A stretch of DNA of 64,000 nucleotides from Candidatus Poribacteria bacterium (GCA_965202725.1 OZ241845.1:794640-858639), one strand, 5' to 3'; counted from the stretch's first letter, positions 4,248-16,236 are shown. Numbers and translations are program-made. The notes: generated by a model not told the origin, from the sequence alone.

Positions 4248-7200
4248 CTACCTCAATGCTGGTAAGCCGCTAACGATGTCCACCGTCTCCAAACTCACCG
4301 TAATCACCTGCCCAATCAGACGAAGAATATACTCCGGGTCCTCAGCACGATTCGGATCGTTCACAATTCCGCTTCGCTTGTCTACTTTCACACGGTATTG
4401 ATCCACAACCCACTCTAACGCAGACCGATTCCCTAACCGATATTCAAGGGCTTCCCCAGGAATACCCTCTAACGTCAGAAAATCGTTGTATCTGAGCCGC
4501 GTCTTATCTTTGGGGAATTTCATTCGCACTACAGACAAGTCCACCTGCATCCCGGGCGTTTCGATGGCATTAAATTTAGCGTATTCGGGTTGGGCTTCGT
4601 AGTTAAGGTGGAGGTCTGCTAATCGTGATCCGGCGTTGGCAAAATGCCAGAAGTCTTCGGCGAAGGGGATATGGGGTAAATCGCGCTTGAGGTTTTCTTG
4701 ATACCGCTCGCGGTAATGGGGATGATGCAAGAGTCCGTAGGTATAGTGGAAGATGTCCCACTTGGCGATAGTGTCGTCTCGGTAGTGGGTTCGGAAGTGT
4801 GCCAACGCCCAATCGGTGATGTTTTCACGTCGGTTTGAACCGTCCTCGTCATAGGTATAGAAGGGGAAACATTGATTCGCTTCAAATGCTAAATCTAAAC
4901 TGCATATCCGATTTGAAACAAGACAACCAAAGCCTTTTCTATTACCGACACCAGCGACACAAATTATCTTATTTTCCCTTTCTGTTTCGGGTGTAGGAAA
5001 AATAGACGGAAACACATAGACACATTCGTTCATCATCCTACTAAAGTAAAGGTGTGATTTTGTGAATGGGCGGTAAAGAGCCCTGCGAACGTTTTCAGCG
5101 GAAAACTCAGCCAATTGACTCTGTTTTAATTTTGACTTTAGGCTTCGGGTCCACTTGAGTTGAGTATCGTCAATTTCTATAAAATCGTTAACGTTGATGT
5201 TTCTGTTGTTTCGTCGTTCCCATTTAGATACCTTTCCATTGTAGTGTTCTATCATTCGTTGAACATTTTCAGTGAGGGCGGCATCATTGAAGTTATAAAC
5301 CCAAGCATCCCGATTTGTCACTACACCGAGGCTGTAGGTTTTGAAAAGCGTTCCCGCCACATCACCCGCACTCGCCTTTGCTGCTTTAGTGCCCATCGGA
5401 AGAAAGGTATCAAAAGCAACATGCAGCCCTCCTGTGAGCCACGTATGCCGTTTATCAGGTATGAGCTCCTGCCACGCGACATTGCCGACATGCTGCTTTT
5501 CTTCTAAAAACGCGAACGTTCGCTCTTTAGGCAGATCTGCTGTTGCATCAGTGTAGAGAATTCGCGCAAGCGAATGCCTAACCTCCCGCTTTGATTTCAC
5601 GAGGATATTGATACTCACACCCACCTGAATACCGAACACGTTGGAATCCCCGGGCTGCCCCTTGCGAACATTGCCACCCAAATCCAGAATGTAGAGCAGA
5701 TCAAAGTTATTGACGAGATGTTGGCGCACGCCATCAAACATCTGAGCATCCATAAAACTGTTGTTCGTTATGAATGCTACAATACCCTCATCGTCCAATG
5801 TATCCGTTGCCCATCGAATCGCCTTCACATACGGATCGTAAAGTTTGTTTTTCAGCTGCGCCCTGGAAGCAGCGGCATACGTGGCTCGGACCCGTGCGTC
5901 AACGCCTGCATGGGGACGGTTTCTGTTGTTATCGTTCTCATTGTTCTGACTCGCATTGTAAGGCGGATTCCCAATCACCACAAACATCGGAAGCTCTCGC
6001 TGCTCCTCAACTCGCAGGGTATTCTCAGGCGTGAAGTAGGAAAACTGCCCTGTTTCATGGGGCGCATCCATCAGCTGGAACGTATCAAACGTATCTACAA
6101 AACAGATATGCGGAAAAGGTTCGTAACTGCCGGTTCTCTCAAAATAGGCGTGTTCTATGTTGAGACTAGCGATGTAGTAAGGGAGTAGCATCACCTCGTT
6201 GCAGTGGAGTTCCTCGCGGTATTTTTGCGGGAGCCGCCTGCCTTGAATCTCTTGCATGAGACGGACGATAAAATTGCCGGTGCCTACGAATGGATCGATG
6301 ATGTGAACCCCCCTATCCGAAAGTGAGCGTCCGAACTCCGTCTTGAGAACGTGTTCAACGCTTTTCACCATGAAGTCAACGATCGGCTGCGGTGTGTAGA
6401 CAATCCCGTGTGTATCCGCAACATCCACGGAGAACCCTTGAAAGAACTGCTCGTAGATGGTATTAAGGAATGACTGCTTCTGTGAGAAATCGGTGATAGT
6501 CGCAGCAGTTTTCTCAATCGCGGTATAGAACGGATCCAAAGGGCGCAGGAACTCGGAACGGCTGAGCGAGCGGCGCGTCAGGATATGGATAACCTTTTCA
6601 ATCTCTTGAGCGATGATATTCCTATGCGTGAAATCGGGGTTGTCAAAGACGGTGCGGAAAATTCGCTCAGTGAGGAGGTGTTGAATGAGCATTTCTTCAA
6701 CCTGTGCCTCAGCGAGGTTCGGATCAATAGATGCCCGGCATTGCTGATGGAAGTTCGCAAACGCTTGTCGGAAAGACGGATTGTCCCGCATCTCGGTCGC
6801 AATCCGTTTCGCGACACCGCGCCCTAAGACAGGCACCTTTGCTTTGAACTCCTCAACCGCAGCATACCAATCGACGATGTTTGCTTCTTGATACGCAAAG
6901 AAAGTAGTGAGCACATTGATAAGGCTCTGTGGATCCGTGAGGTCTACATCCAGGCGGAGGAGTCCGTTCTGATAGAGAAGGGCATGGGTCGGAGATTGAA
7001 AGATGATATTTTTGAAGGGGTATCCCGCCGCTGACTTTTTTCGGGCTTCTGTCAGGAGGTCGTCCTGTGTATCTTTAGCTTCCCAGTGTCCGTGTGGTAA
7101 GCCATAACCGTCAACAACTTCCCCATCTATGCGGATCCTTTTGTAACCGCCGGTAGCGAGGGGGAGGGTGCGTGTCTTTTCACAGACGAGGGTGAGCCCT

Positions 7201-7346
7201 GCCCGTCGGCAGTAGTTCTGGAGGAGGTTTTGAAAAGCAGTTCGGACTGTGCCTTCGTGTTCAGCACCAAGTTCTGCGTATGCTTTGAGTTCGCTGTAGT
7301 AGTTTCTGATGGGTTTATGTGTGGGTTTGATATTGAGGTCAGGCAT
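4248..7346 (-). CDS. single-polypeptide Type IIG/IIL restriction-modification enzyme (MmeI-like: N-terminal PD-ExK nuclease, gamma-class N6-adenine MTase, C-terminal TRD)
   Basis: 1032 aa. N-terminal D-x9-EAK (IDGEVVDGYGLPHGHWEAKD) resembles the MmeI nuclease motif. Motif I is IIDPFVGTGNF and motif IV is GNPPYNAS. A long C-terminal region follows with no helicase motifs. Confidence 0.6.
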   Translation of the reverse strand: MPDLNIKPTHKPIRNYYSELKAYAELGAEHEGTVRTAFQNLLQNYCRRAGLTLVCEKTRTLPLATGGYKRIRIDGEVVDGYGLPHGHWEAKDTQDDLLTEARKKSAAGYPFKNIIFQSPTHALLYQNGLLRLDVDLTDPQSLINVLTTFFAYQEANIVDWYAAVEEFKAKVPVLGRGVAKRIATEMRDNPSFRQAFANFHQQCRASIDPNLAEAQVEEMLIQHLLTERIFRTVFDNPDFTHRNIIAQEIEKVIHILTRRSLSRSEFLRPLDPFYTAIEKTAATITDFSQKQSFLNTIYEQFFQGFSVDVADTHGIVYTPQPIVDFMVKSVEHVLKTEFGRSLSDRGVHIIDPFVGTGNFIVRLMQEIQGRRLPQKYREELHCNEVMLLPYYIASLNIEHAYFERTGSYEPFPHICFVDTFDTFQLMDAPHETGQFSYFTPENTLRVEEQRELPMFVVIGNPPYNASQNNENDNNRNRPHAGVDARVRATYAAASRAQLKNKLYDPYVKAIRWATDTLDDEGIVAFITNNSFMDAQMFDGVRQHLVNNFDLLYILDLGGNVRKGQPGDSNVFGIQVGVSINILVKSKREVRHSLARILYTDATADLPKERTFAFLEEKQHVGNVAWQELIPDKRHTWLTGGLHVAFDTFLPMGTKAAKASAGDVAGTLFKTYSLGVVTNRDAWVYNFNDAALTENVQRMIEHYNGKVSKWERRNNRNINVNDFIEIDDTQLKWTRSLKSKLKQSQLAEFSAENVRRALYRPFTKSHLYFSRMMNECVYVFPSIFPTPETERENKIICVAGVGNRKGFGCLVSNRICSLDLAFEANQCFPFYTYDEDGSNRRENITDWALAHFRTHYRDDTIAKWDIFHYTYGLLHHPHYRERYQENLKRDLPHIPFAEDFWHFANAGSRLADLHLNYEAQPEYAKFNAIETPGMQVDLSVVRMKFPKDKTRLRYNDFLTLEGIPGEALEYRLGNRSALEWVVDQYRVKVDKRSGIVNDPNRAEDPEYILRLIGQVITVSLETVDIVSGLPALR

Positions 7347-7876: not shown

Positions 7877-7955
7877 TTTTGTAGCATCCCCCTTGCTTGC
7901 GGGGGCGGGGGGGTAATGTCAAACCTGCAGAGCCTAATAGGAAACCATGCTACAA
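7877..7955. repeat. composite repeat: A-fragment + B motif (CCCCCTTGCTTGCGGGGGCGGGGGGGTAATG) + A motif (reverse)
   Basis: B then A order, mirroring the A then B copy at 3631-3695 on the other side of the restriction-modification gene. Confidence 0.7.
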
Positions 7956-8022
7956 ATGCGGGGAGCAGAATGCATGTGTTTTTTCACATATCTCCGCCTC
8001 TTTTAGCACAGGGAGCAGATCA

Positions 8023-10467
8023 ATGATTTTGTCCAATAACGTCCTACGATGCTTCTGTCTAATGTTGATACTGTCATTCGGTGCCTTTACCGCCGCCGAT
8101 GGTGAAAAGGATACCCTCAATTTTTCTAAAAATGGCGCGCTATTTTTAGAACGGTACTGTTTCAGTTGTCACGCTGGTGACCAACCCGCTGCTGAACTCT
8201 CCTTGGATTCCTATACAGATAGCCATTCCTTAATTAAGGATCGTGAGGTTTGGGATCGGGTGCTGGACATGGTAGAAACAACACAAATGCCGCCAGCAGA
8301 TAATGAACAACCATCAATAGAAGCATTGGAATCGTTTATTGCGCATATTGAAGCAATCTTTGAACACGCGGACCGCACGGCGAAGCCCGACCCTGGACGC
8401 GTTACAGTCCGCCGCCTCAATAGGGTGGAATACAGAAATACTGTCCGCGACCTCCTCGGTGTCGATTTCAACCCTACCGAAAAGTTTCCTGCAGATGATG
8501 TCGGACACGGGTTTGATAACATTGGTGATGTCCTTTCTATGTCCCCACTGCTAATGGAACGTTACCTTGAAGCCGCGGAGGCAATTGTCTCGCGTGTTAT
8601 CGTATTGGATCCACTGCCTCCCTCCAGATCCTACCGAAACGGGAAAACTCTTGAGCCACTCCACGATGATGTTCCTGATGAACGTTACCGCCTGCTCGAT
8701 CCCACGGCTACAGAGCCGTGGAAATCGGGACCATTTACAACGGGCGCAGACAATTTCAATATAGCACCCGACGTAGAAATTATCTACCACGCGACGCTCT
8801 ATGCAGAGACGGAGCGTGATACCCCTGTAGAGGCCGTCTTATTCATTCAAGGTGACGAATTAGCGCACCTAACCCCACCGGAGAAACTTTCACGCTTAGT
8901 GGGTGTAGATCCGTCAGTGGATAATAACATCAAGGTTTTAAAGGCTTTTAAGATTACCGCTCGCAGCCCTGAAAAAAACCAGACGATTAAAGTCCATATT
9001 ACCGGTATTCCGAACATTGAAAACGTCGGCATCGCAATGCTTAAACCAAAGGAAGGTGAACCAGACGCTAAACTTCAGATTCGTGTGCTCTGGTCAAAAG
9101 GTCCGTTAGAAACCAGACCTAAATCTCATTTCGAGATTCTGGCATGCACACCGGGAATCTCCCAAGCCGAACAGACCCGTGAGGTACTCACGCGCCTGCT
9201 ACGCCGCGGCTATCGCCGTCCACCGACCGAAAACGAAATAGAACACCTCGCGCAGTTTGCTGAATCTGTTCAAGCGGACGGAGCGTCGTGGGAAGCAAGT
9301 GTCCAAGCAGCGATCAAAGTTATTCTCTGTTCACCCAAATTCCTGTTTCGATGGGAGCTCGATGCCCGACCACAAACGCCGGAACCGCATCCGATTGATG
9401 AATTCCAACTCGCTGCGCGGCTCGCCTATTTCATTTGGAGCAGCATGCCAGATGACGAACTCCTTGAACTCGCTGAGACCAAGCAACTCACGGCTAACCT
9501 GGAAGCTCAAGTTAAACGTATGTTAGCTGACGCAAAGGCATCTGAATTAGGGAGCAATTTCGGGGCCCAATGGCTTCAGATTCAACGGTTAACGACAGTC
9601 GCGCCGGATCTCGAAAAATTTCCATATTTCACTGGCAGCTTGCGCTTGGCTATGCAAAAGGAGACAGAACTTTTCGTTGAATCGATCTTTCGCGAAGACA
9701 GGAGTCTGCTTGATCTGATTGATGCCGACTATACCTTCCTTAATCAACCTATCGCGAGCCACTATGGTATCGTTGATACACAAGGAAATTGGCGGAAACA
9801 TAAGAACCCAGTCCCGGGCGGTGAACGGATTCGCGGTAAATCGTTCCGGCGCGTTAAGATACAAGGCACCTCACGCGGTGGAATACTCAGCCACGCCAGT
9901 GTGCTGACGGTGACCTCTAACCCAACGCGCACCTCGCCCGTCAAAAGGGGACGCTGGGTACTCGAACAGATACTCGGTACGCCGCCACCACCGCCACCAC
10001 CAGATGTCCCAGAATTAGAAGAAGAGGCGGCGGTGGTTCATGGAACTACGTTGCGAGAACGCCTTGAGCAACACCGGGCGGATCCAGCATGTGCTAACTG
10101 CCACGCGAAAATGGATCCTATCGGATTTGCTCTCGAAAACTATAATGCAATCGGCGCGTTTCGCTGGAAAGACGGCGAATTGGATATCGACACAACAGCC
10201 GTATTACCGGACGGAACAGTGCTACAACACGGCATCGTAGACTTGAGACGCGTCATCTTGGATCGAAAACAGCAGTTCCTACGTTGCTTGACAGAAAAAT
10301 TGTTAACCTACGCTTTGGGTAGAGGATTAGAATATTACGACCGACCCACTGTTGAACATATCGTGGCACAACTCGAAACCAAGGACTACAGAAGTTCGGT
10401 ACTGATTACAGAAATCGTCAAAAGCGATCCATTCCGGTTACGACGTGGCACAGCAATCAAGCGATGA
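8023..10467 (+). CDS. DUF1592/DUF1588/DUF1585-type (PSD1-like) secreted protein with cytochrome-c-like CxxCH heme-binding motif
   Basis: Signal peptide [32 protein letters not shown] is a CxxCH motif. Large conserved C-terminal region with [26 protein letters not shown] lies 8 nt upstream of the ATG at 8023. The listed ORF start 7897 is a TTG inside the repeat. Confidence 0.7.
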
Positions 10468-11492
10468 TACGTATGACAACTCATGTAATCCTTTTTCTTA
10501 TCGTAATTCTCCACTCCGGGTGTTATACCCTTCCTTATGAAACACCAAATCAAAGCCCAACTTTACAGCTGGAGGAAAAGTACTCTGTTTATTTAGATTC
10601 TACATGGACGGCAGAACAAGCAGACGCGCTTTTAAAGGTTTTTGAATCCATACCCGCAGTGCTGAACCTACGTTTTTCTCAATGGCGCATAAGTGACAAG
10701 GATTTGGAAAACGGTATTAAGATTGAATTTAAAGATAAGTTAAAATTTGTTACAATTAGTAGATACATCTTTCCCATTGAAGGGAATCGAGAGTCGTTGT
10801 CACCCGGAAAGGAGCTATATTTTGCTGTCGTTCAATTCCTAACAGAGCGTGGGACAAACAGAGCCATAATAGAATTAATACTGCAAAAGAGGTATGGTGT
10901 ATACGTACCCTCTTATGATTCCTTAACCGAGGAGACTCCAAGCCAAACATCAAAACGCTATTCAAATTTTGAGAATGAAGACCTGATGCTCATTATATCC
11001 GTATTTGAAGAATTCCCGCAGACACTCCATAAAATACCGAGGCTAGAATATATAGTTCGTAGAATTGATAGGGGTGAAGATGAAGATGAAAGAGGTATGA
11101 GTTATGCTCGGATAGGTCAGGGGCACATAGAGTTTGCTGAATCCATTTTTCACCGCCGTAACGCTAATACGACTCGGCGCGTAATTGCCCACGAAAAGGC
11201 ACATTTTATATGGGCTTTCGTTTTTAATAGTGCACTGAGAGCGGATTGGGCAAAACTTGGGGGATGGCATCGAGATGCAAGCGAATCGGGCTGGTCAACA
11301 ACCAAAGATCGATCAGCTTTTGTATCTGATTATGCTTCTGAAAAAAATCCAAATGAGGATATGGCGGAAAGTATCGCACATTATCTTATATCGCCCCATA
11401 AACTCCGTTCCTGTTGTCCTGAGAAGTATGCGTTTATTCATAAGCGCATGCTTATGTATGCTGAAAGATACGAACCCGCCAATGTTATGTGA
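10464..11492 (+). CDS. hypothetical lipoprotein-like protein with HExxH zinc-metallopeptidase motif; visibly AT-richer than neighbours
   Basis: ATGA start overlaps the stop of the upstream gene. N-terminus is [20 protein letters not shown], and VIAHEKAHFIW is an HExxH motif. Confidence 0.45.
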   Translation: MIRMTTHVILFLIVILHSGCYTLPYETPNQSPTLQLEEKYSVYLDSTWTAEQADALLKVFESIPAVLNLRFSQWRISDKDLENGIKIEFKDKLKFVTISRYIFPIEGNRESLSPGKELYFAVVQFLTERGTNRAIIELILQKRYGVYVPSYDSLTEETPSQTSKRYSNFENEDLMLIISVFEEFPQTLHKIPRLEYIVRRIDRGEDEDERGMSYARIGQGHIEFAESIFHRRNANTTRRVIAHEKAHFIWAFVFNSALRADWAKLGGWHRDASESGWSTTKDRSAFVSDYASEKNPNEDMAESIAHYLISPHKLRSCCPEKYAFIHKRMLMYAERYEPANVM

Positions 11493-11621
11493 TAGCACCT
11501 GTTTAGTTTGATTAACCTATATTCCAGGAAATCACGTTAAATAATGATACATACACACCTCTCGGACTAACCTCAAAAAATCTATCTATGGTAAACTGAG
11601 TGACAGGGATCGGAGATACTT

Positions 11622-12671
11622 ATGAGCACATTAAAACAATTTTCACGTCGATCATTTTTAAGTGGTTTAGCGGTCGGCGCTGCTCTACCGTGGTTGGAAA
11701 CAATAGGTTCCCTTGCATCTTGGGCAGACACGTTCCCGGACGGGAAAACGATTACCCGTTACCCTGATCCATCTGTTGAAGTGATAGCCCCACGTTTTGG
11801 AAAGTATAAAATCGGCAACGCTGTTGTGGAACGGTTATGGACCGGGGCGCGCTGGTCAGAGGGACCTGTCTGGTTTGGGGACGGAGGATTCCTTCTCTGG
11901 AGTGACATTCCCAATAACCGTATCCTGAAATGGCAGGAATCCACTGGCGCAGTAAGCGTCTATCGTAAACCGGCTAACTTCACCAACGGACACACACGCG
12001 ACCGACAGGGTAGACTTATTAGTTGTGAACACGGCACCCGACGCGTTACGCGCACTGAGTATGATGGAACAATTACCGTCCTCATAGACAACTTCGAGGG
12101 CAAACGTTTCAACGCACCCAACGATGCTGTTGTCCATCCCGATGGACATATCTGGTTTACGGACCCCGGATACGGTATCCTTTCGCATTATGAAGGACAT
12201 AAAGCAGAATTTGAATTACCAACCGCCGTTTATCGCCTGAATCCTGACACTGGCGAATCAGTCGTTGTGACGGAAGAAATCGAAAGACCGAACGGTATCT
12301 GTTTTTCACCCAATTATGATAAACTTTACGTTGCTGATACAGGTACACCGAAAAACATCGTTGTTTATGAGGTTGTAAGCGGTGAACGTTTGGCTAACAA
12401 ATTGGTGTTCGCAGATATGACACCCGGGGCCGCCGATGGGCTTCGGTGCGATATTGACGGTAATTTATGGGCAGGTACAGGTTGGGTCGGCAAAGGTTAC
12501 GACGGGGTCCATATCTTCGCACCAGACGGAACGCTTATCGGTAAAATTCATCTGCCAGAGATTTGTGCAAATATCTGTTTCGGGGGCGTAAAACGAAACA
12601 GACTCTTTATGGCAGGCAGTCAATCTCTCTACTCAGTTTATGTCAATGCGCAAGGCGTGCCCTACTTTTAG
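11622..12671 (+). CDS. SMP-30/gluconolactonase/LRE-like beta-propeller protein with twin-arginine signal peptide
   Basis: SRRSFLSGLAVGAALPW TAT signal, GGAGAT RBS, 349 aa. N-terminal 35 aa closely resemble those of the DUF1552 protein downstream. Confidence 0.6.
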   Translation: MSTLKQFSRRSFLSGLAVGAALPWLETIGSLASWADTFPDGKTITRYPDPSVEVIAPRFGKYKIGNAVVERLWTGARWSEGPVWFGDGGFLLWSDIPNNRILKWQESTGAVSVYRKPANFTNGHTRDRQGRLISCEHGTRRVTRTEYDGTITVLIDNFEGKRFNAPNDAVVHPDGHIWFTDPGYGILSHYEGHKAEFELPTAVYRLNPDTGESVVVTEEIERPNGICFSPNYDKLYVADTGTPKNIVVYEVVSGERLANKLVFADMTPGAADGLRCDIDGNLWAGTGWVGKGYDGVHIFAPDGTLIGKIHLPEICANICFGGVKRNRLFMAGSQSLYSVYVNAQGVPYF

Positions 12672-12848
12672 TCTGAGGATTACCTAAAAACATCTCACCC
12701 TTTTAGCTATGAAAGAGAGTTCCCGCTAAACATTTGACACGACTATAAGGCTATAGTTATAATAGCTAACATAAGCAGTTGTGGAGAGCGATGGTTACCA
12801 TCCTCTATGAACGAAAACGCCATACAAAAAGTTTAGGAAGGAATCGTT

Positions 12849-14189
12849 ATGAACACTTCGAAACAACTTTCACGTCGTACATTCTTACGTGGTCTGGGTG
12901 TCAGTATCGCCCTACCGTGGCTGGAAGCCATGGGGCCTGTCACATCATGGGCGAACGCGCCTACAAGTGCACAGACAGCTCCGAACCGGATGGCTTTCCT
13001 TTACGTACCTAACGGGAAGATCATGGAGGATTGGACTCCAAAGCAGGTGGGAGCTGACTACGAACTCACGGCTATCTTGAAACCGTTGGAAAGTGTAAAA
13101 GACAAAATGCTGGTCCTCAGTGGACTGACCGCTGACAAAGCACGTGCAAACGGTGATGGCGGTGGGGATCATGCTCGAGCCATGGCAGCCTTCCTGACAG
13201 GTGCCCAGCCTCGTAAAACTGACGGTGCTGACATTCACGCCGGTGTTTCTGTTGACCAAGTTGCAGCATCGCACGTCGGCAATCGGACCCGGATGCCCTC
13301 CCTCGAGCTCGGTATCGATCCCGGAAGAAGAGCAGGTAATTGCGACTCCGGCTATAGCTGTGTCTATTCATCAACTCTCTCATGGCGTTCTGCGACTCAG
13401 CCGCTGCCCAAAGAGGTAAATCCAAAACTCGCTTTCGAGCGTCTCTTCTCAACCCTCCCCGATACAGAACGGGTGGAACGCGACCAGAAGCGAAAGAGCG
13501 TCCTCGATTTCGTGATTCAAGACTCAAAAGACTTGCGCCGACACGTCACGGGGCACGATGTCCGCAAACTCGATGAGTACTTCTCCGCTATCCGAGACGT
13601 TGAACTGAGAATCGAAGCATCCGAAAAGTTCCCGCCTATCGAAAGCCCCGATTATACCGGACCGGAGGAGATTCCAGAAGATTATCAAGAACATCTGCGC
13701 CTTATGATGGACCTGATGGTCCTCGCATTTCAGGCGGATGTAACCCGTGTTACGACCTTCGTCCTCGCAAATGAGGGAAGTAACAGACCCTACCCGTTTG
13801 TTGATGTCTCAGAGGGACACCACTACTTGTCGCATCACAGTGGCGATCAAGAAAAAATAGAAAAAATCAAAAGGATTGATATTTTCCATTCCGAGCAGTT
13901 GGCATACTTCTTGGAAAAACTCGCCGCAACGTCTGAAGGCGACGGATCACTCTTGGATCACTCGATGATTCTGTACGGTAGCGGAAACGCAGACGGCAAC
14001 CGACACAGCCATCACGATCTCCCTATCATACTTGCAGGCGGCGGTTGCGGCACGCTCAAGACAGGGCGTCATATCCGGTATCCAAAAGAGACTCCACTCA
14101 ACAACTTATGGCTGTCAATGCTCAATCGTATGGATGTTGCGGTCGCGCAAATAGGCGATAGTACAGGCAGTTTATCAGCCCTCTCTTAA
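12849..14189 (+). CDS. DUF1552 family protein (TAT signal), the usual partner of DUF1592/PSD1-type proteins
   Basis: MNTSKQLSRRTFLRGLGVSIALPWLEAMG N-terminus typical of DUF1552. AGGAAGG RBS. Confidence 0.7.
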   Translation: MNTSKQLSRRTFLRGLGVSIALPWLEAMGPVTSWANAPTSAQTAPNRMAFLYVPNGKIMEDWTPKQVGADYELTAILKPLESVKDKMLVLSGLTADKARANGDGGGDHARAMAAFLTGAQPRKTDGADIHAGVSVDQVAASHVGNRTRMPSLELGIDPGRRAGNCDSGYSCVYSSTLSWRSATQPLPKEVNPKLAFERLFSTLPDTERVERDQKRKSVLDFVIQDSKDLRRHVTGHDVRKLDEYFSAIRDVELRIEASEKFPPIESPDYTGPEEIPEDYQEHLRLMMDLMVLAFQADVTRVTTFVLANEGSNRPYPFVDVSEGHHYLSHHSGDQEKIEKIKRIDIFHSEQLAYFLEKLAATSEGDGSLLDHSMILYGSGNADGNRHSHHDLPIILAGGGCGTLKTGRHIRYPKETPLNNLWLSMLNRMDVAVAQIGDSTGSLSALS

Positions 14190-14198
14190 ATCATGGAT

Positions 14199-14231
14199 GC
14201 GGCGCGCTCGTGAGCGCGCCTGCTTCTTCAT
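14199..14231. terminator. rho-independent terminator hairpin between convergent genes
   Basis: GGCGCGC-tcgtga-GCGCGCC stem-loop followed by TGCTTCTTCAT. Lies 10 nt after the stop of the DUF1552 gene and downstream of the minus-strand membrane gene. Confidence 0.45.
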
Positions 14232-14325: not shown

Positions 14326-16236
14326 TTACCAGTCCTTAAAGGGAAATATCCGGGTCTCTGTCACCATTCCATAAAAACTCCATAGACTCCCCGCCACAAA
14401 CTCGCCGAGGATTAAACCGAGGAAAAAAGGGGCTGCCTTCCGATGCAATTGCAACCCGCCCTGTTTAATAATCAACCATTTGGCAATAGTGCTAATCACA
14501 AGCGAAATCCAGAGCCAGTTCATACACCAATCTGCTGCACCGGAAACAGCATACCCTACAGCATGGAAGGGCCACCAAAAGAAACGCATCCGTAAAAACA
14601 TCAAGAGGAACGTAAATCCCATACCGATGCCCATAGCAGACACTTCAGGAATGTTCGGCCCCATCGGAAAATTGAGTTGTTTTTGGAGTCTCTCGAAAGG
14701 ATGTCGGGCAAACCCCCCTGTTGCCCCAAAGTGATAGACATCGTGCAAATATGCCCAGAAAGAGCCAATTGAACCCACAAGTGCTGCTAAGAGCATTACC
14801 CATACCAAGGGTTTCGGATTAAACCGAGCCCGTGAGGCGAGCTGGAAACCTTCTAATTGGTGTGGCATAGGATGGCTACGGTGCGCTCGGTTAAAGAAAA
14901 ACAGAAAGGAAAGTGCTGTAAGATTGGCCCCCCCCATCCCTCGCGATCCGAGAATCGTCGGTAAAGCGTAGTCCGGTCCCATAAAATGGAGGTCGTGCGC
15001 TGGAGCCCCCGATTCGACTCGCATCCGTGTGATTCCTGTTGACAACGCGAAATACATCGCGAAAAAGGCGATACCCAGCGAAATGCTGATACCTATCTTC
15101 ACAGAAAACGCTATCAGATAGACACATCCCAAGACGATACCTATGATCGCAGTACGGTATTGCATCGGTTCAACGGATTCATCAAGGCTCGAACGCCCTG
15201 TAAATATTTGTTTGAAAACCTCTGCAAGGTACTTCCGGCTTGCCCATATCGCGAAAACTGCCAAACCGAGATACGCCCCCAGGGACTGCTGCCGATCATA
15301 CGGAAAACCGGGTAATCCGCGAACGCCAATGATTGCCCCGACAATCCGTTGCATCTTTCGAAACAGGTAGAAAAACCAACACGAAAACGACAAATCCAGA
15401 GGCATAAAGAATCCGAGTCCAATAACAAACGGATAGATGGAAAAAGGGGTCCAACCGATAGAACTCCACGGCTTGTCAGTGAAAAAATGGCTGATATTCC
15501 GAAACCGGACACCGATAATCGGGATTGTCGGAAAAAGATAGCTGAACCCGTTCACAATATTAAGGAGCGAGACAAGGATAAAGGCTGTCCAAAATACTCT
15601 GCCTCGATAGAACTTTGCCCCACTGTCGCGCGTCATTTCTAACGGCAATTGAATAATTGGATAGGCAAGTTTTTCACGCTCCGTCCATTGCTTCCGCAGC
15701 ACAACGTTAATACAGAGCATAACGAACACAAGCACTACAATGAAACTCGTCCACCACAGCGCCGGCCCCAACCATGCTTGTAGTACCTCTGCGCGATAAA
15801 GTGTTGTTTGTCCTTCGTAAAAGCCTTCTAATATCCTCTTATCTTGGACAGTGCCCCACGTTGGCATGTAGCGGTGGAGAAGTTCCCGCCATTCGTTTTC
15901 AGGTGTATCGTACCAGAAAACGTGTCCAATCATCGGAATCAAAACTTGTGTATGATCGTGTGAGGCGATAGCACTCGCCATACAAAGCATCACGTAGATG
16001 ACAAGCAGCTCACCGTGTGTCATTGCCCACTGGCGCTTTATCCGGCGGACGATCAGGTTCAGGAGCGTAATCACAAACACAAAGAAGATAGCATTGAAGA
16101 ACAGAGACATCGTTGTCGGAAAAAGACCCCACCAGACCATCTCCGTATACATAACCCAGTAGCAGTTGATCGGGATAAGGATAAGAGATAATATAACTGA
16201 TTTTAAAGTGACACCACGGGTTAAAGCGTCAGGCAT
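14326..16236 (-). CDS. large polytopic integral membrane protein, function unknown
   Basis: 636 aa with more than 12 hydrophobic helices, rich in W/F/Y. No catalytic motif recognised. Confidence 0.5.
   Translation of the reverse strand: MPDALTRGVTLKSVILSLILIPINCYWVMYTEMVWWGLFPTTMSLFFNAIFFVFVITLLNLIVRRIKRQWAMTHGELLVIYVMLCMASAIASHDHTQVLIPMIGHVFWYDTPENEWRELLHRYMPTWGTVQDKRILEGFYEGQTTLYRAEVLQAWLGPALWWTSFIVVLVFVMLCINVVLRKQWTEREKLAYPIIQLPLEMTRDSGAKFYRGRVFWTAFILVSLLNIVNGFSYLFPTIPIIGVRFRNISHFFTDKPWSSIGWTPFSIYPFVIGLGFFMPLDLSFSCWFFYLFRKMQRIVGAIIGVRGLPGFPYDRQQSLGAYLGLAVFAIWASRKYLAEVFKQIFTGRSSLDESVEPMQYRTAIIGIVLGCVYLIAFSVKIGISISLGIAFFAMYFALSTGITRMRVESGAPAHDLHFMGPDYALPTILGSRGMGGANLTALSFLFFFNRAHRSHPMPHQLEGFQLASRARFNPKPLVWVMLLAALVGSIGSFWAYLHDVYHFGATGGFARHPFERLQKQLNFPMGPNIPEVSAMGIGMGFTFLLMFLRMRFFWWPFHAVGYAVSGAADWCMNWLWISLVISTIAKWLIIKQGGLQLHRKAAPFFLGLILGEFVAGSLWSFYGMVTETRIFPFKDW

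Follow-up and report, generated by a model that had tools for sequence, protein, structure and literature searches.

The DUF1592–DUF1552 module and a four-gene variant in Candidatus Poribacteria

PSCyt3 genes usually adjoin a family of unknown genes (He et al. 2017, PMC5615132), and DUF1501/PSCyt modules have been reported to carry twin-arginine signals and variable extra genes, with no function known (Kamneva et al. 2012, PMC3542564). The function of the DUF1592/DUF1552 module is likewise unknown in this literature (PMC5615132, PMC3542564). In the canonical arrangement, found in Planctomycetota and Verrucomicrobiota, a DUF1592 (PSCyt3/PSD) gene is paired with a DUF1552 gene, and the PSCyt2/PSD1–DUF1501 modules are its known parallel. 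Here we describe a variant of this pair in a stretch of DNA from Candidatus Poribacteria (the window, 64 kb in its entirety; positions are counted from its first letter), for which homologues also point to Candidatus Poribacteria as the organism. In this variant a gene for an HExxH protein, probably a lipoprotein, and a gene for an SMP-30/gluconolactonase-like protein (SGL) lie between DUF1592 and DUF1552, and the SGL protein opens with a leader peptide homologous to that of its DUF1552 neighbor. We favor, with a probability of roughly 0.8, the explanation that a duplicated cytoplasmic lactonase captured the leader of a DUF1552 gene in a single ancient event and was thereby re-targeted to the periplasm.

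Four open reading frames (ORFs) on the plus strand fill positions 7897–14189, as the preliminary description of this DNA had laid them out: the DUF1592-type PSCyt/PSD gene (7897..10467), the HExxH gene (10464..11492), the SGL gene (11622..12671) and the DUF1552 gene (12849..14189). In place of the canonical adjacency, DUF1592 and DUF1552 are separated by 2381 nucleotides (nt) and two genes. The SGL gene encodes a protein of 349 amino acids (aa), clearly an SMP-30/gluconolactonase/LRE-like six-bladed β-propeller; it scores 182 bits with Pfam SGL/SMP-30 (PF08450; cut-off 26.3), and its PDB matches include 3e5z (4e-55) and 3dr2, the latter annotated as an exported gluconolactonase (4e-51). The 446 aa DUF1552 protein reaches 358.7 bits with Pfam HXXSHH (PF07586; cut-off 30).

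Homology of the SGL and DUF1552 leaders

The SGL leader, MSTLKQFSRRSFLSGLAVGAALPWLETIGSLASWA (11622..11726, +), and the native DUF1552 leader, MNTSKQLSRRTFLRGLGVSIALPWLEAMGPVTSWA (12849..12953, +), form an ungapped alignment that begins at Met1 and reaches the SWA motif, after which cleavage of the SGL leader is predicted; 22 of 35 residues are identical (63%, close to the ~60% first estimated). At the nucleotide level, a comparison that the preliminary description had proposed, 70% of the 105 nt are identical, including 19 of 35 third codon positions. Both leaders carry an SRR[ST]FL motif, SRRSFL in SGL and SRRTFL in DUF1552, which is conserved in all orthologues listed; by inspection this is followed by a weakly hydrophobic h-region (GLAVGAALPWL in SGL, GLGVSIALPWL in DUF1552) and an AxA-type site at SWA, where the similarity between the two proteins stops. 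The regions 5' of the two ATGs show no likeness, so the copied segment would either begin at or near the ATG or have lost an upstream likeness through decay. These two are the only twin-arginine (RR) type leaders within the window, and in the fetched Poribacteria DNA, ~1.1 Mb in all, a scan for RR leaders found almost none besides those of the SGL and DUF1552 families.

The resemblance was compared with what RR leaders in general would give by means of a hidden Markov model (HMM) built solely from the DUF1552 leaders of lineages lacking the SGL insertion, with 13 SGL homologues bearing their own ordinary RR leaders as the control. The leaders of 27 leader-bearing SGL clusters scored 14.8–68 bits, with that of the window at 48.5 bits, and the 13 controls scored −1.9 to 7.8 bits. 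The closest pairs share 31 of 40 residues (within a single related locus, L002) and up to 30 of 40 when an SGL leader is set against the DUF1552 leader of P0334, from an outgroup that has the canonical pair. The two leaders are homologous, and their likeness exceeds that of generic twin-arginine signals, as the preliminary description had held; it extends through the n-, h- and c-regions to the cleavage site and is not confined to the RRxFL core.

On average the SGL leaders are slightly nearer to the P0334 leader than to that of their own DUF1552 neighbor, most clearly in the c-region (ETxGSLxAWAD), as would be expected if the capture were old and the two leaders had diverged independently ever since. 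The portions of the DUF1552 leader that survive in SGL vary by lineage: ALPWLE in that of the window, AMGPLTSWAD in loci L022–L027, and a shortened version, PVLN…LAD, in L021 and L031–L040. Because the pieces retained differ between lineages, the ancestral SGL leader must, judging from these alignments, have been a near-complete DUF1552 leader. In L021 (6001-6110) the SGL leader …ALPLLDPLTALADIP… is the short form of the L031-L040 sub-clade and the mature domain groups with those of the window's sub-clade, which points to 5'-end recombination between lineages or to convergent deletion.

The leader belongs to the DUF1552 family

The window's DUF1552 protein has the family-typical N terminus, LSRRT.LRGLG…ALPWLE.MGP…WA. 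Planctomycetota DUF1552 proteins at ~70% identity have the same N terminus (LSRRTVLRGLGVAVSLPWLEAMGPVTAWAD), and an alignment of 56 homologues shows no variation at R9, R10, L13, G17, P23, W24, L25 and M28. An exhaustive search of 1.84 billion cluster representatives (50% identity clusters) with a 38-position profile built on the shared leader gave 3091 matches at E<=1e-3. Among the matches listed, nearly all run on into the start of the DUF1552 mature protein (APNRMAFLYVPNG…), 44 of the 72 representatives of at least 95 aa match Pfam HXXSHH, and the only recurrent carriers outside the DUF1552 family are fragments of Poribacteria SGL proteins. The SGL protein itself, for all its DUF1552-type N terminus, fails Pfam HXXSHH and is not a member of that family. 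These matches and alignments mark the leader, across phyla, as a hallmark of DUF1552 proteins, and the transfer therefore ran from DUF1552 to SGL.

A leader-only search of an index of 5.8 billion proteins returned 12 short, frameshifted SGL or DUF1552 fragments and is uninformative on other carriers. The profile matches also include singletons in which a DUF1552-type leader is fused to MerR, σ70 region 4, Mo-co dimerisation or NHL-like sequence (P0160, P0197, P0139 and P0254). These were rejected as further carriers, being most probably chimeric or frameshifted contigs; P0254, with its leader joined to propeller-like sequence, could represent a second, independent capture.

Origin of the leader-bearing SGL

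The nearest relatives of the leader-bearing SGL proteins are leaderless Poribacteria proteins of 323 aa, 75–80% identical to them. The two types share chromosomes, for example L025 and L046 on OZ244889.1, and in the loci examined the leaderless genes lie elsewhere, never beside DUF1592/DUF1552. Homology between the types starts at about residue 43 of the leader-bearing form (TITRYPDP), and the leader and a short linker stand in place of ~10 N-terminal residues of the leaderless paralogue. In a neighbor-joining (NJ) tree of the mature domains, all 42 leader-bearing proteins form one clade, sister to the leaderless Poribacteria SGLs, with 99/100 bootstrap support for the joint clade. This topology indicates one SGL duplication within Poribacteria and lends moderate support to a single capture of the leader.

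The following course of events would account for these relationships. In the ancestor of the Poribacteria clade, two genes would have been recruited into the normally overlapping DUF1592–DUF1552 pair: a duplicate of the gene for a cytoplasmic SMP-30/gluconolactonase-like enzyme, and the HExxH lipoprotein gene. The lactonase copy would have gained ~36–38 codons from the very start of a DUF1552 gene, enough to encode the leader from its n-region through the ALPWLE-bearing h-region to the end of the c-region at SWA, and this stretch would have replaced the ~10-residue N terminus of the paralogue. The presumed route combines illegitimate recombination with duplication of part of the DUF1552 gene at its 5' end. 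The twin-arginine translocation (Tat) type signal so acquired would have moved the lactonase into the compartment of the DUF1592 and DUF1552 proteins, where it may be functionally coupled to that pair. Thereafter the borrowed leader would have drifted fast, while the donor leader stayed under a strong constraint specific to its family. A periplasmic site for this enzyme is plausible by analogy, since exported gluconolactonases exist and Terriglobia homologues have Tat leaders of their own. Of the alternatives that the preliminary description had offered, its 5'-end swap or duplication is the one borne out by the leader homology; the capture is old, and ran from DUF1552 to SGL.

Several points weigh against this explanation. 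The SGL leader reaches only 17.5 bits against Pfam TAT_signal (PF10518; cut-off 22.7), the DUF1552 protein has no match to that family at E<=0.01, and NCBIfam reports no family for either protein; because the leaders miss the Pfam threshold and NCBIfam reports no family, Tat export and cleavage are proposed from the leader features described above. The clade of leader-bearing SGLs has an NJ bootstrap of only 66/100. The carriers of the leader were read from the best 150 of the 3091 profile matches, a leaderless representative of a 50% identity cluster can conceal members that bear the leader, and the Poribacteria DNA scanned consisted only of the fetched loci (~1.1 Mb), so other carrier families are possible. 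Gene conversion of the kind seen in L002 (see below) could also have refreshed the similarity of the leaders elsewhere.

Antiquity of the four-gene cluster

Sampling one genome per species yielded 80 loci. The gene order DUF1592 – (HExxH) – SGL – DUF1552 recurs in 36 of the fetched Poribacteria loci, 30 of which have the HExxH gene, including the distant L005, L006 and L039, whose HExxH proteins are 44–52% identical. The gene is missing in L002, L015–L017, L020 and L038 and is split in L001, and is, on this distribution, secondarily lost or broken in some lineages. In the nearest DUF1552 homologues outside the clade (70–77% identical), the DUF1592 stop overlaps the DUF1552 start, and the outgroup loci L090, L091/L092 and L093 have this canonical overlapping pair with neither SGL nor HExxH gene. 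Because HExxH is present even in distant members, the presence pattern shows the four-gene cluster to be ancestral to the clade and not a local or recent insertion. The synteny in relatives, which the preliminary description had suggested examining, thus bears on its claim of two genes inserted into the pair: the pair is indeed split by two recruited genes when set against the canonical overlap, but with the order kept in 36 loci the event was neither local nor recent.

The HExxH-to-SGL and SGL-to-DUF1552 spacers are hot-spots of insertion. Such insertions were found at L023 2426-5983, L032 3687-5980, L033 2180-5938, L039 2723-5920, L029 7047-10490, L036 7038-8977, L069 6936-8478 and L025 4905-5942, and their contents comprise a secreted repeat protein of 529–713 aa, transposase-like fragments, small ORFs resembling addiction modules (toxin–antitoxin) and a protein of 1091 aa.

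Rates of leader evolution and alternative explanations

The two leaders have evolved at very different rates. Among SGL orthologues the leaders have a mean pairwise identity of 0.61 and the mature domains one of 0.89, so that the leader diverges 3.4× faster; the corresponding DUF1552 values are 0.86 and 0.83, the leader diverging 0.8× as fast. Fast divergence of leaders is normal for signal peptides. PWLE has moreover been replaced in several SGL lineages whose gene still stands in the cluster, by PCIG in L022–L029, by PLLG in L028, L030, L039 and L076, and by a shortened PVLN, PMLN or PLLD in L021 and L031–L040. Because the SGL leader drifts fast and has lost PWLE with the gene kept in place, the extended motif is, on this comparison, not needed by SGL, and the unusual constraint is specific to the DUF1552 leader.

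These rates bear directly on the second reading in the preliminary description, in which ALPWLE…SWA is a shared recognition motif. Selection would keep it on both proteins if it were recognized by a common chaperone, by the DUF1592 partner or at a common assembly step. Such a motif would suit the exceptional conservation of the DUF1552 leader, which exceeds that of the mature protein also across phyla and in which P23, W24, L25 and M28 stay invariant in the 56 homologues down to 44% identity, and ALPWLE does persist in the SGL of the window's sub-lineage. A conservation of this degree means that the DUF1552 leader probably does more than bare Tat targeting. Selection on both copies is difficult to reconcile, however, with an SGL leader that outpaces its own mature domain more than threefold and has lost PWLE in separate lineages while remaining in the cluster, and the two c-regions show no consistent co-variation within genomes; we regard a motif shared by both proteins as unlikely. 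A related idea, and to our mind an equally doubtful one, is that the DUF1552 leader is a dual tag which also docks the pre-protein to its DUF1592 partner or to a chaperone, in which case the window's SGL may be co-exported or co-assembled with the pair in a three-enzyme periplasmic complex. A dual purpose of this kind would explain why the leader is conserved across phyla more than the enzyme body, and, if true, the docking tag would give the DUF1592/DUF1552 module its first functional handle.

Ongoing gene conversion, by which adjacent leaders are kept alike through concerted evolution, would instead require that the leaders of one genome resemble each other more than those of different genomes. 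Over 39 genomes, the nucleotide identity of SGL and DUF1552 leaders is 0.739 within and 0.730 between genomes, and concerted evolution as a general process was rejected on this equality. In most genomes the closest DUF1552 leader is not that of the neighbor (29 of 38 other DUF1552 leaders are as close to the window's SGL leader as that of its own neighbor, or closer), and the average nearness of SGL leaders to the outgroup speaks against conversion as well. The process does find support in individual loci, with a clear conversion tract in L002 alone. In L002 (8001-8105 vs 9111-9215) the first 39 nt of the two leaders are identical, as are 84% of all 105 nt, a lineage-specific MNKSKQ is shared, and the locus's own DUF1552 leader ranks first of 39, so that local gene conversion is likely there on the evidence of the alignment; the own DUF1552 leader also ranks first in L030. 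In L002 the HExxH gene has been lost and the SGL and DUF1552 genes lie ~60 nt apart.

A raised use of identical codons over codons 2–16 of both genes could be read in the same way. In alignments of 41 SGL and 38 DUF1552 orthologues, the probability of an identical codon at synonymous sites in this segment (window 11625-11669 and 12852-12896) is 0.74 for SGL and 0.64 for DUF1552, against 0.57 and 0.52 in the mature regions, exceeding at least 99.6% of sliding windows; both leaders use the same A/T-rich codons (TCA AAA CAA … TCA CGT CGA … TTT TTA). Synonymous conservation beside the start codon is, however, also expected from 5' mRNA constraints; the pattern is compatible with ordinary constraints of that type, which help to explain the residual nucleotide identity of the leaders. 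Conversion as the general cause of the likeness appears very unlikely. Chance or a generic Tat resemblance, given that all Tat leaders share SRRxFLK and a hydrophobic stretch and that the SRRxFL core alone yields ~6 identities, is hardly credible beside an identity that runs through all three regions of the leader, reaches 31/40 and separates 48.5 bits from at most 7.8. The single ancient capture is therefore the explanation that we retain.

The HExxH gene

The start of the HExxH gene lies within the DUF1592 stop, in an ATGA overlap at 10464–10467; this coupling had been pointed out in the preliminary description, as had the AT-richness of the gene, which is evident in a GC content of ~0.39–0.42 (~0.41 for the gene in the window) against ~0.50 in its neighbors. 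Over 30 loci its mean GC is 0.39, against 0.49 for the three neighboring genes, though the gene is old and vertically conserved. Its orthologues are 44–88% identical and evolve much faster than the cluster neighbors, and in L025 the gene is doubled in tandem. The encoded protein of 342 aa is probably a lipoprotein: in the orthologue alignment Cys20 is invariant and ends a signal-peptide-like N terminus, with a lipobox that reads LHSGC in the window (H at −3) and the canonical LIGC or LTGC in some orthologues. HEKAH and NPNEDMAES are conserved in 14 aligned orthologues. Pfam Peptidase_Mx is matched by the window's protein at 19.9 bits against a cut-off of 27, with SprT also below threshold; sub-threshold matches to Peptidase_Mx were found in all 14 orthologues scanned and to Peptidase_Mx1 in 13 of them. 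Against PDB, the HExxH profile gave only weak matches to ATLF-like and Zmp1 structures (E=0.13–0.3). The protein is at most a candidate gluzincin-type zinc metallopeptidase, a group marked by HExxH and an acidic third ligand further along the chain.

The DUF1592 and DUF1552 proteins and the flanking region

The DUF1592 ORF encodes the Pfam domains PSCyt1–PSD3–PSD5–PSD4–PSCyt3–PSD2. PSD4/DUF1592, PSCyt3, PSD3, PSD2 and PSD5 all score above the Pfam threshold, PSCyt1 scores 32.9 bits against a cut-off of 22, and the translation has a CFSCH motif of the haem-c (CxxCH) type. As called, the ORF opens at TTG 7897 and encodes 856 aa, and the ATG at 8023, where a Sec-like signal peptide opens, gives 814 aa; as the orthologues measure 813–826 aa, the true start is probably ATG 8023, and the first 42 codons would be untranslated.

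Sequence searches found no solved homologue of DUF1552. An AlphaFold2 (AF2) model was poor despite an alignment of 56 sequences, with a predicted local distance difference test (pLDDT) score of 55 and a predicted template modeling (pTM) score of 0.61; residues 1–42, which are left unstructured, and 97–259 are unconfident. The best Foldseek matches of this model in the PDB are all sulfatases or members of the alkaline-phosphatase superfamily at a template modeling (TM) score of ~0.35, a hint from the model of a fold of that superfamily. A dehydrogenase role for DUF1552, in which it would make the lactone for SGL, was considered and finds no support in these fold matches.

Inside the SGL–DUF1552 spacer, ~85 nt 5' of the DUF1552 start, is a perfect (12/12) match to the σ70-type consensus, TTGACA-18-TATAAT (12734..12763, +), identified by consensus match only. 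Matches of at least 11/12 within 200 nt 5' of DUF1552 occur in 20 of 39 loci, mostly as TTGACA-17-TATAAT, and DUF1552 may, to judge from these sites, have gained a strong promoter of its own once the overlap with DUF1592 was lost. Just 3' of the DUF1552 stop is a terminator-like GC-rich hairpin of 8 bp, 7 of them GC, with a poor T-tail (14201..14220, +). The cluster is flanked by minus-strand ORFs at 4248-7346 (1032 aa) and 14326-16236 (636 aa, a multi-pass membrane protein). In the related locus L001 the gene 5' of the cluster matches Type_ISP_C, and both L001 and L002 have, 3' of DUF1552, a syntenic gene for a DUF6785 membrane protein.

Comparison with known systems

The Poribacteria cluster has the same domain architecture as the canonical DUF1592–DUF1552 pair of Planctomycetota and Verrucomicrobiota, with 70% identity to Planctomycetota homologues, but differs in that the pair is split, in a conserved manner, by the HExxH lipoprotein and Tat-SGL genes, and in that about half of the loci have a σ70 promoter-like consensus site for DUF1552 in place of the overlap. 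A lactonase-like enzyme and an HExxH lipoprotein have been stably recruited to the DUF1592/DUF1552 module in a sponge-symbiont phylum, and both are candidates for biochemistry on what the "Planctomycete-specific cytochrome" modules act on. The exported gluconolactonases, namely PDB 3dr2 and the Tat-leader SGLs of Terriglobia, belong to the same SGL β-propeller family as the window's protein; they have unrelated, ordinary signal peptides of their own (MHRRAFINAAAV…), which score at most 7.8 bits against the DUF1552-leader profile.

Relocalization of duplicates to a new subcellular compartment through a gained N-terminal targeting sequence is described mainly for eukaryotes (PMC3879971, PMC4202327). 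The SGL pair would fit that pattern, with one paralogue leaderless and cytoplasmic and the other bearing a targeting peptide and a new location. It would differ from the eukaryotic cases in being bacterial and in that the Tat leader did not arise de novo: a DUF1552 gene, most probably the neighboring one, supplied the copy. The locus would thus offer a natural example of a bacterial protein re-addressed by the copied signal peptide of its neighbor, with the "before" paralogue still present in the same genomes.

In the TorD/TorA, DmsD/DmsA and NapD/NapA systems, family-specific conservation of the Tat leader beyond the RR core reflects its binding by a chaperone of its own. By analogy, the very strong conservation of the DUF1552 leader recalls the chaperone-bound leaders of TorA, DmsA and NapA; unlike in TorD-type systems, none of the four genes of the cluster was identified as that of a chaperone, and the SGL copy of the leader lacks a comparable constraint. 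The result is a natural transplant, in which the same leader is near-frozen on DUF1552 and drifts freely on SGL, and the extra constraint would therefore depend on the DUF1552 passenger or its partners and not on the Tat machinery. This contrast offers a clue to a leader-specific chaperone or partner in the very abundant DUF1552 family, and the unusually constrained DUF1552 leader deserves experimental attention. The Poribacteria cluster itself is no new kind of system: it combines a relocalized duplicate with an elaborated PSCyt-type module, both of which are known phenomena.

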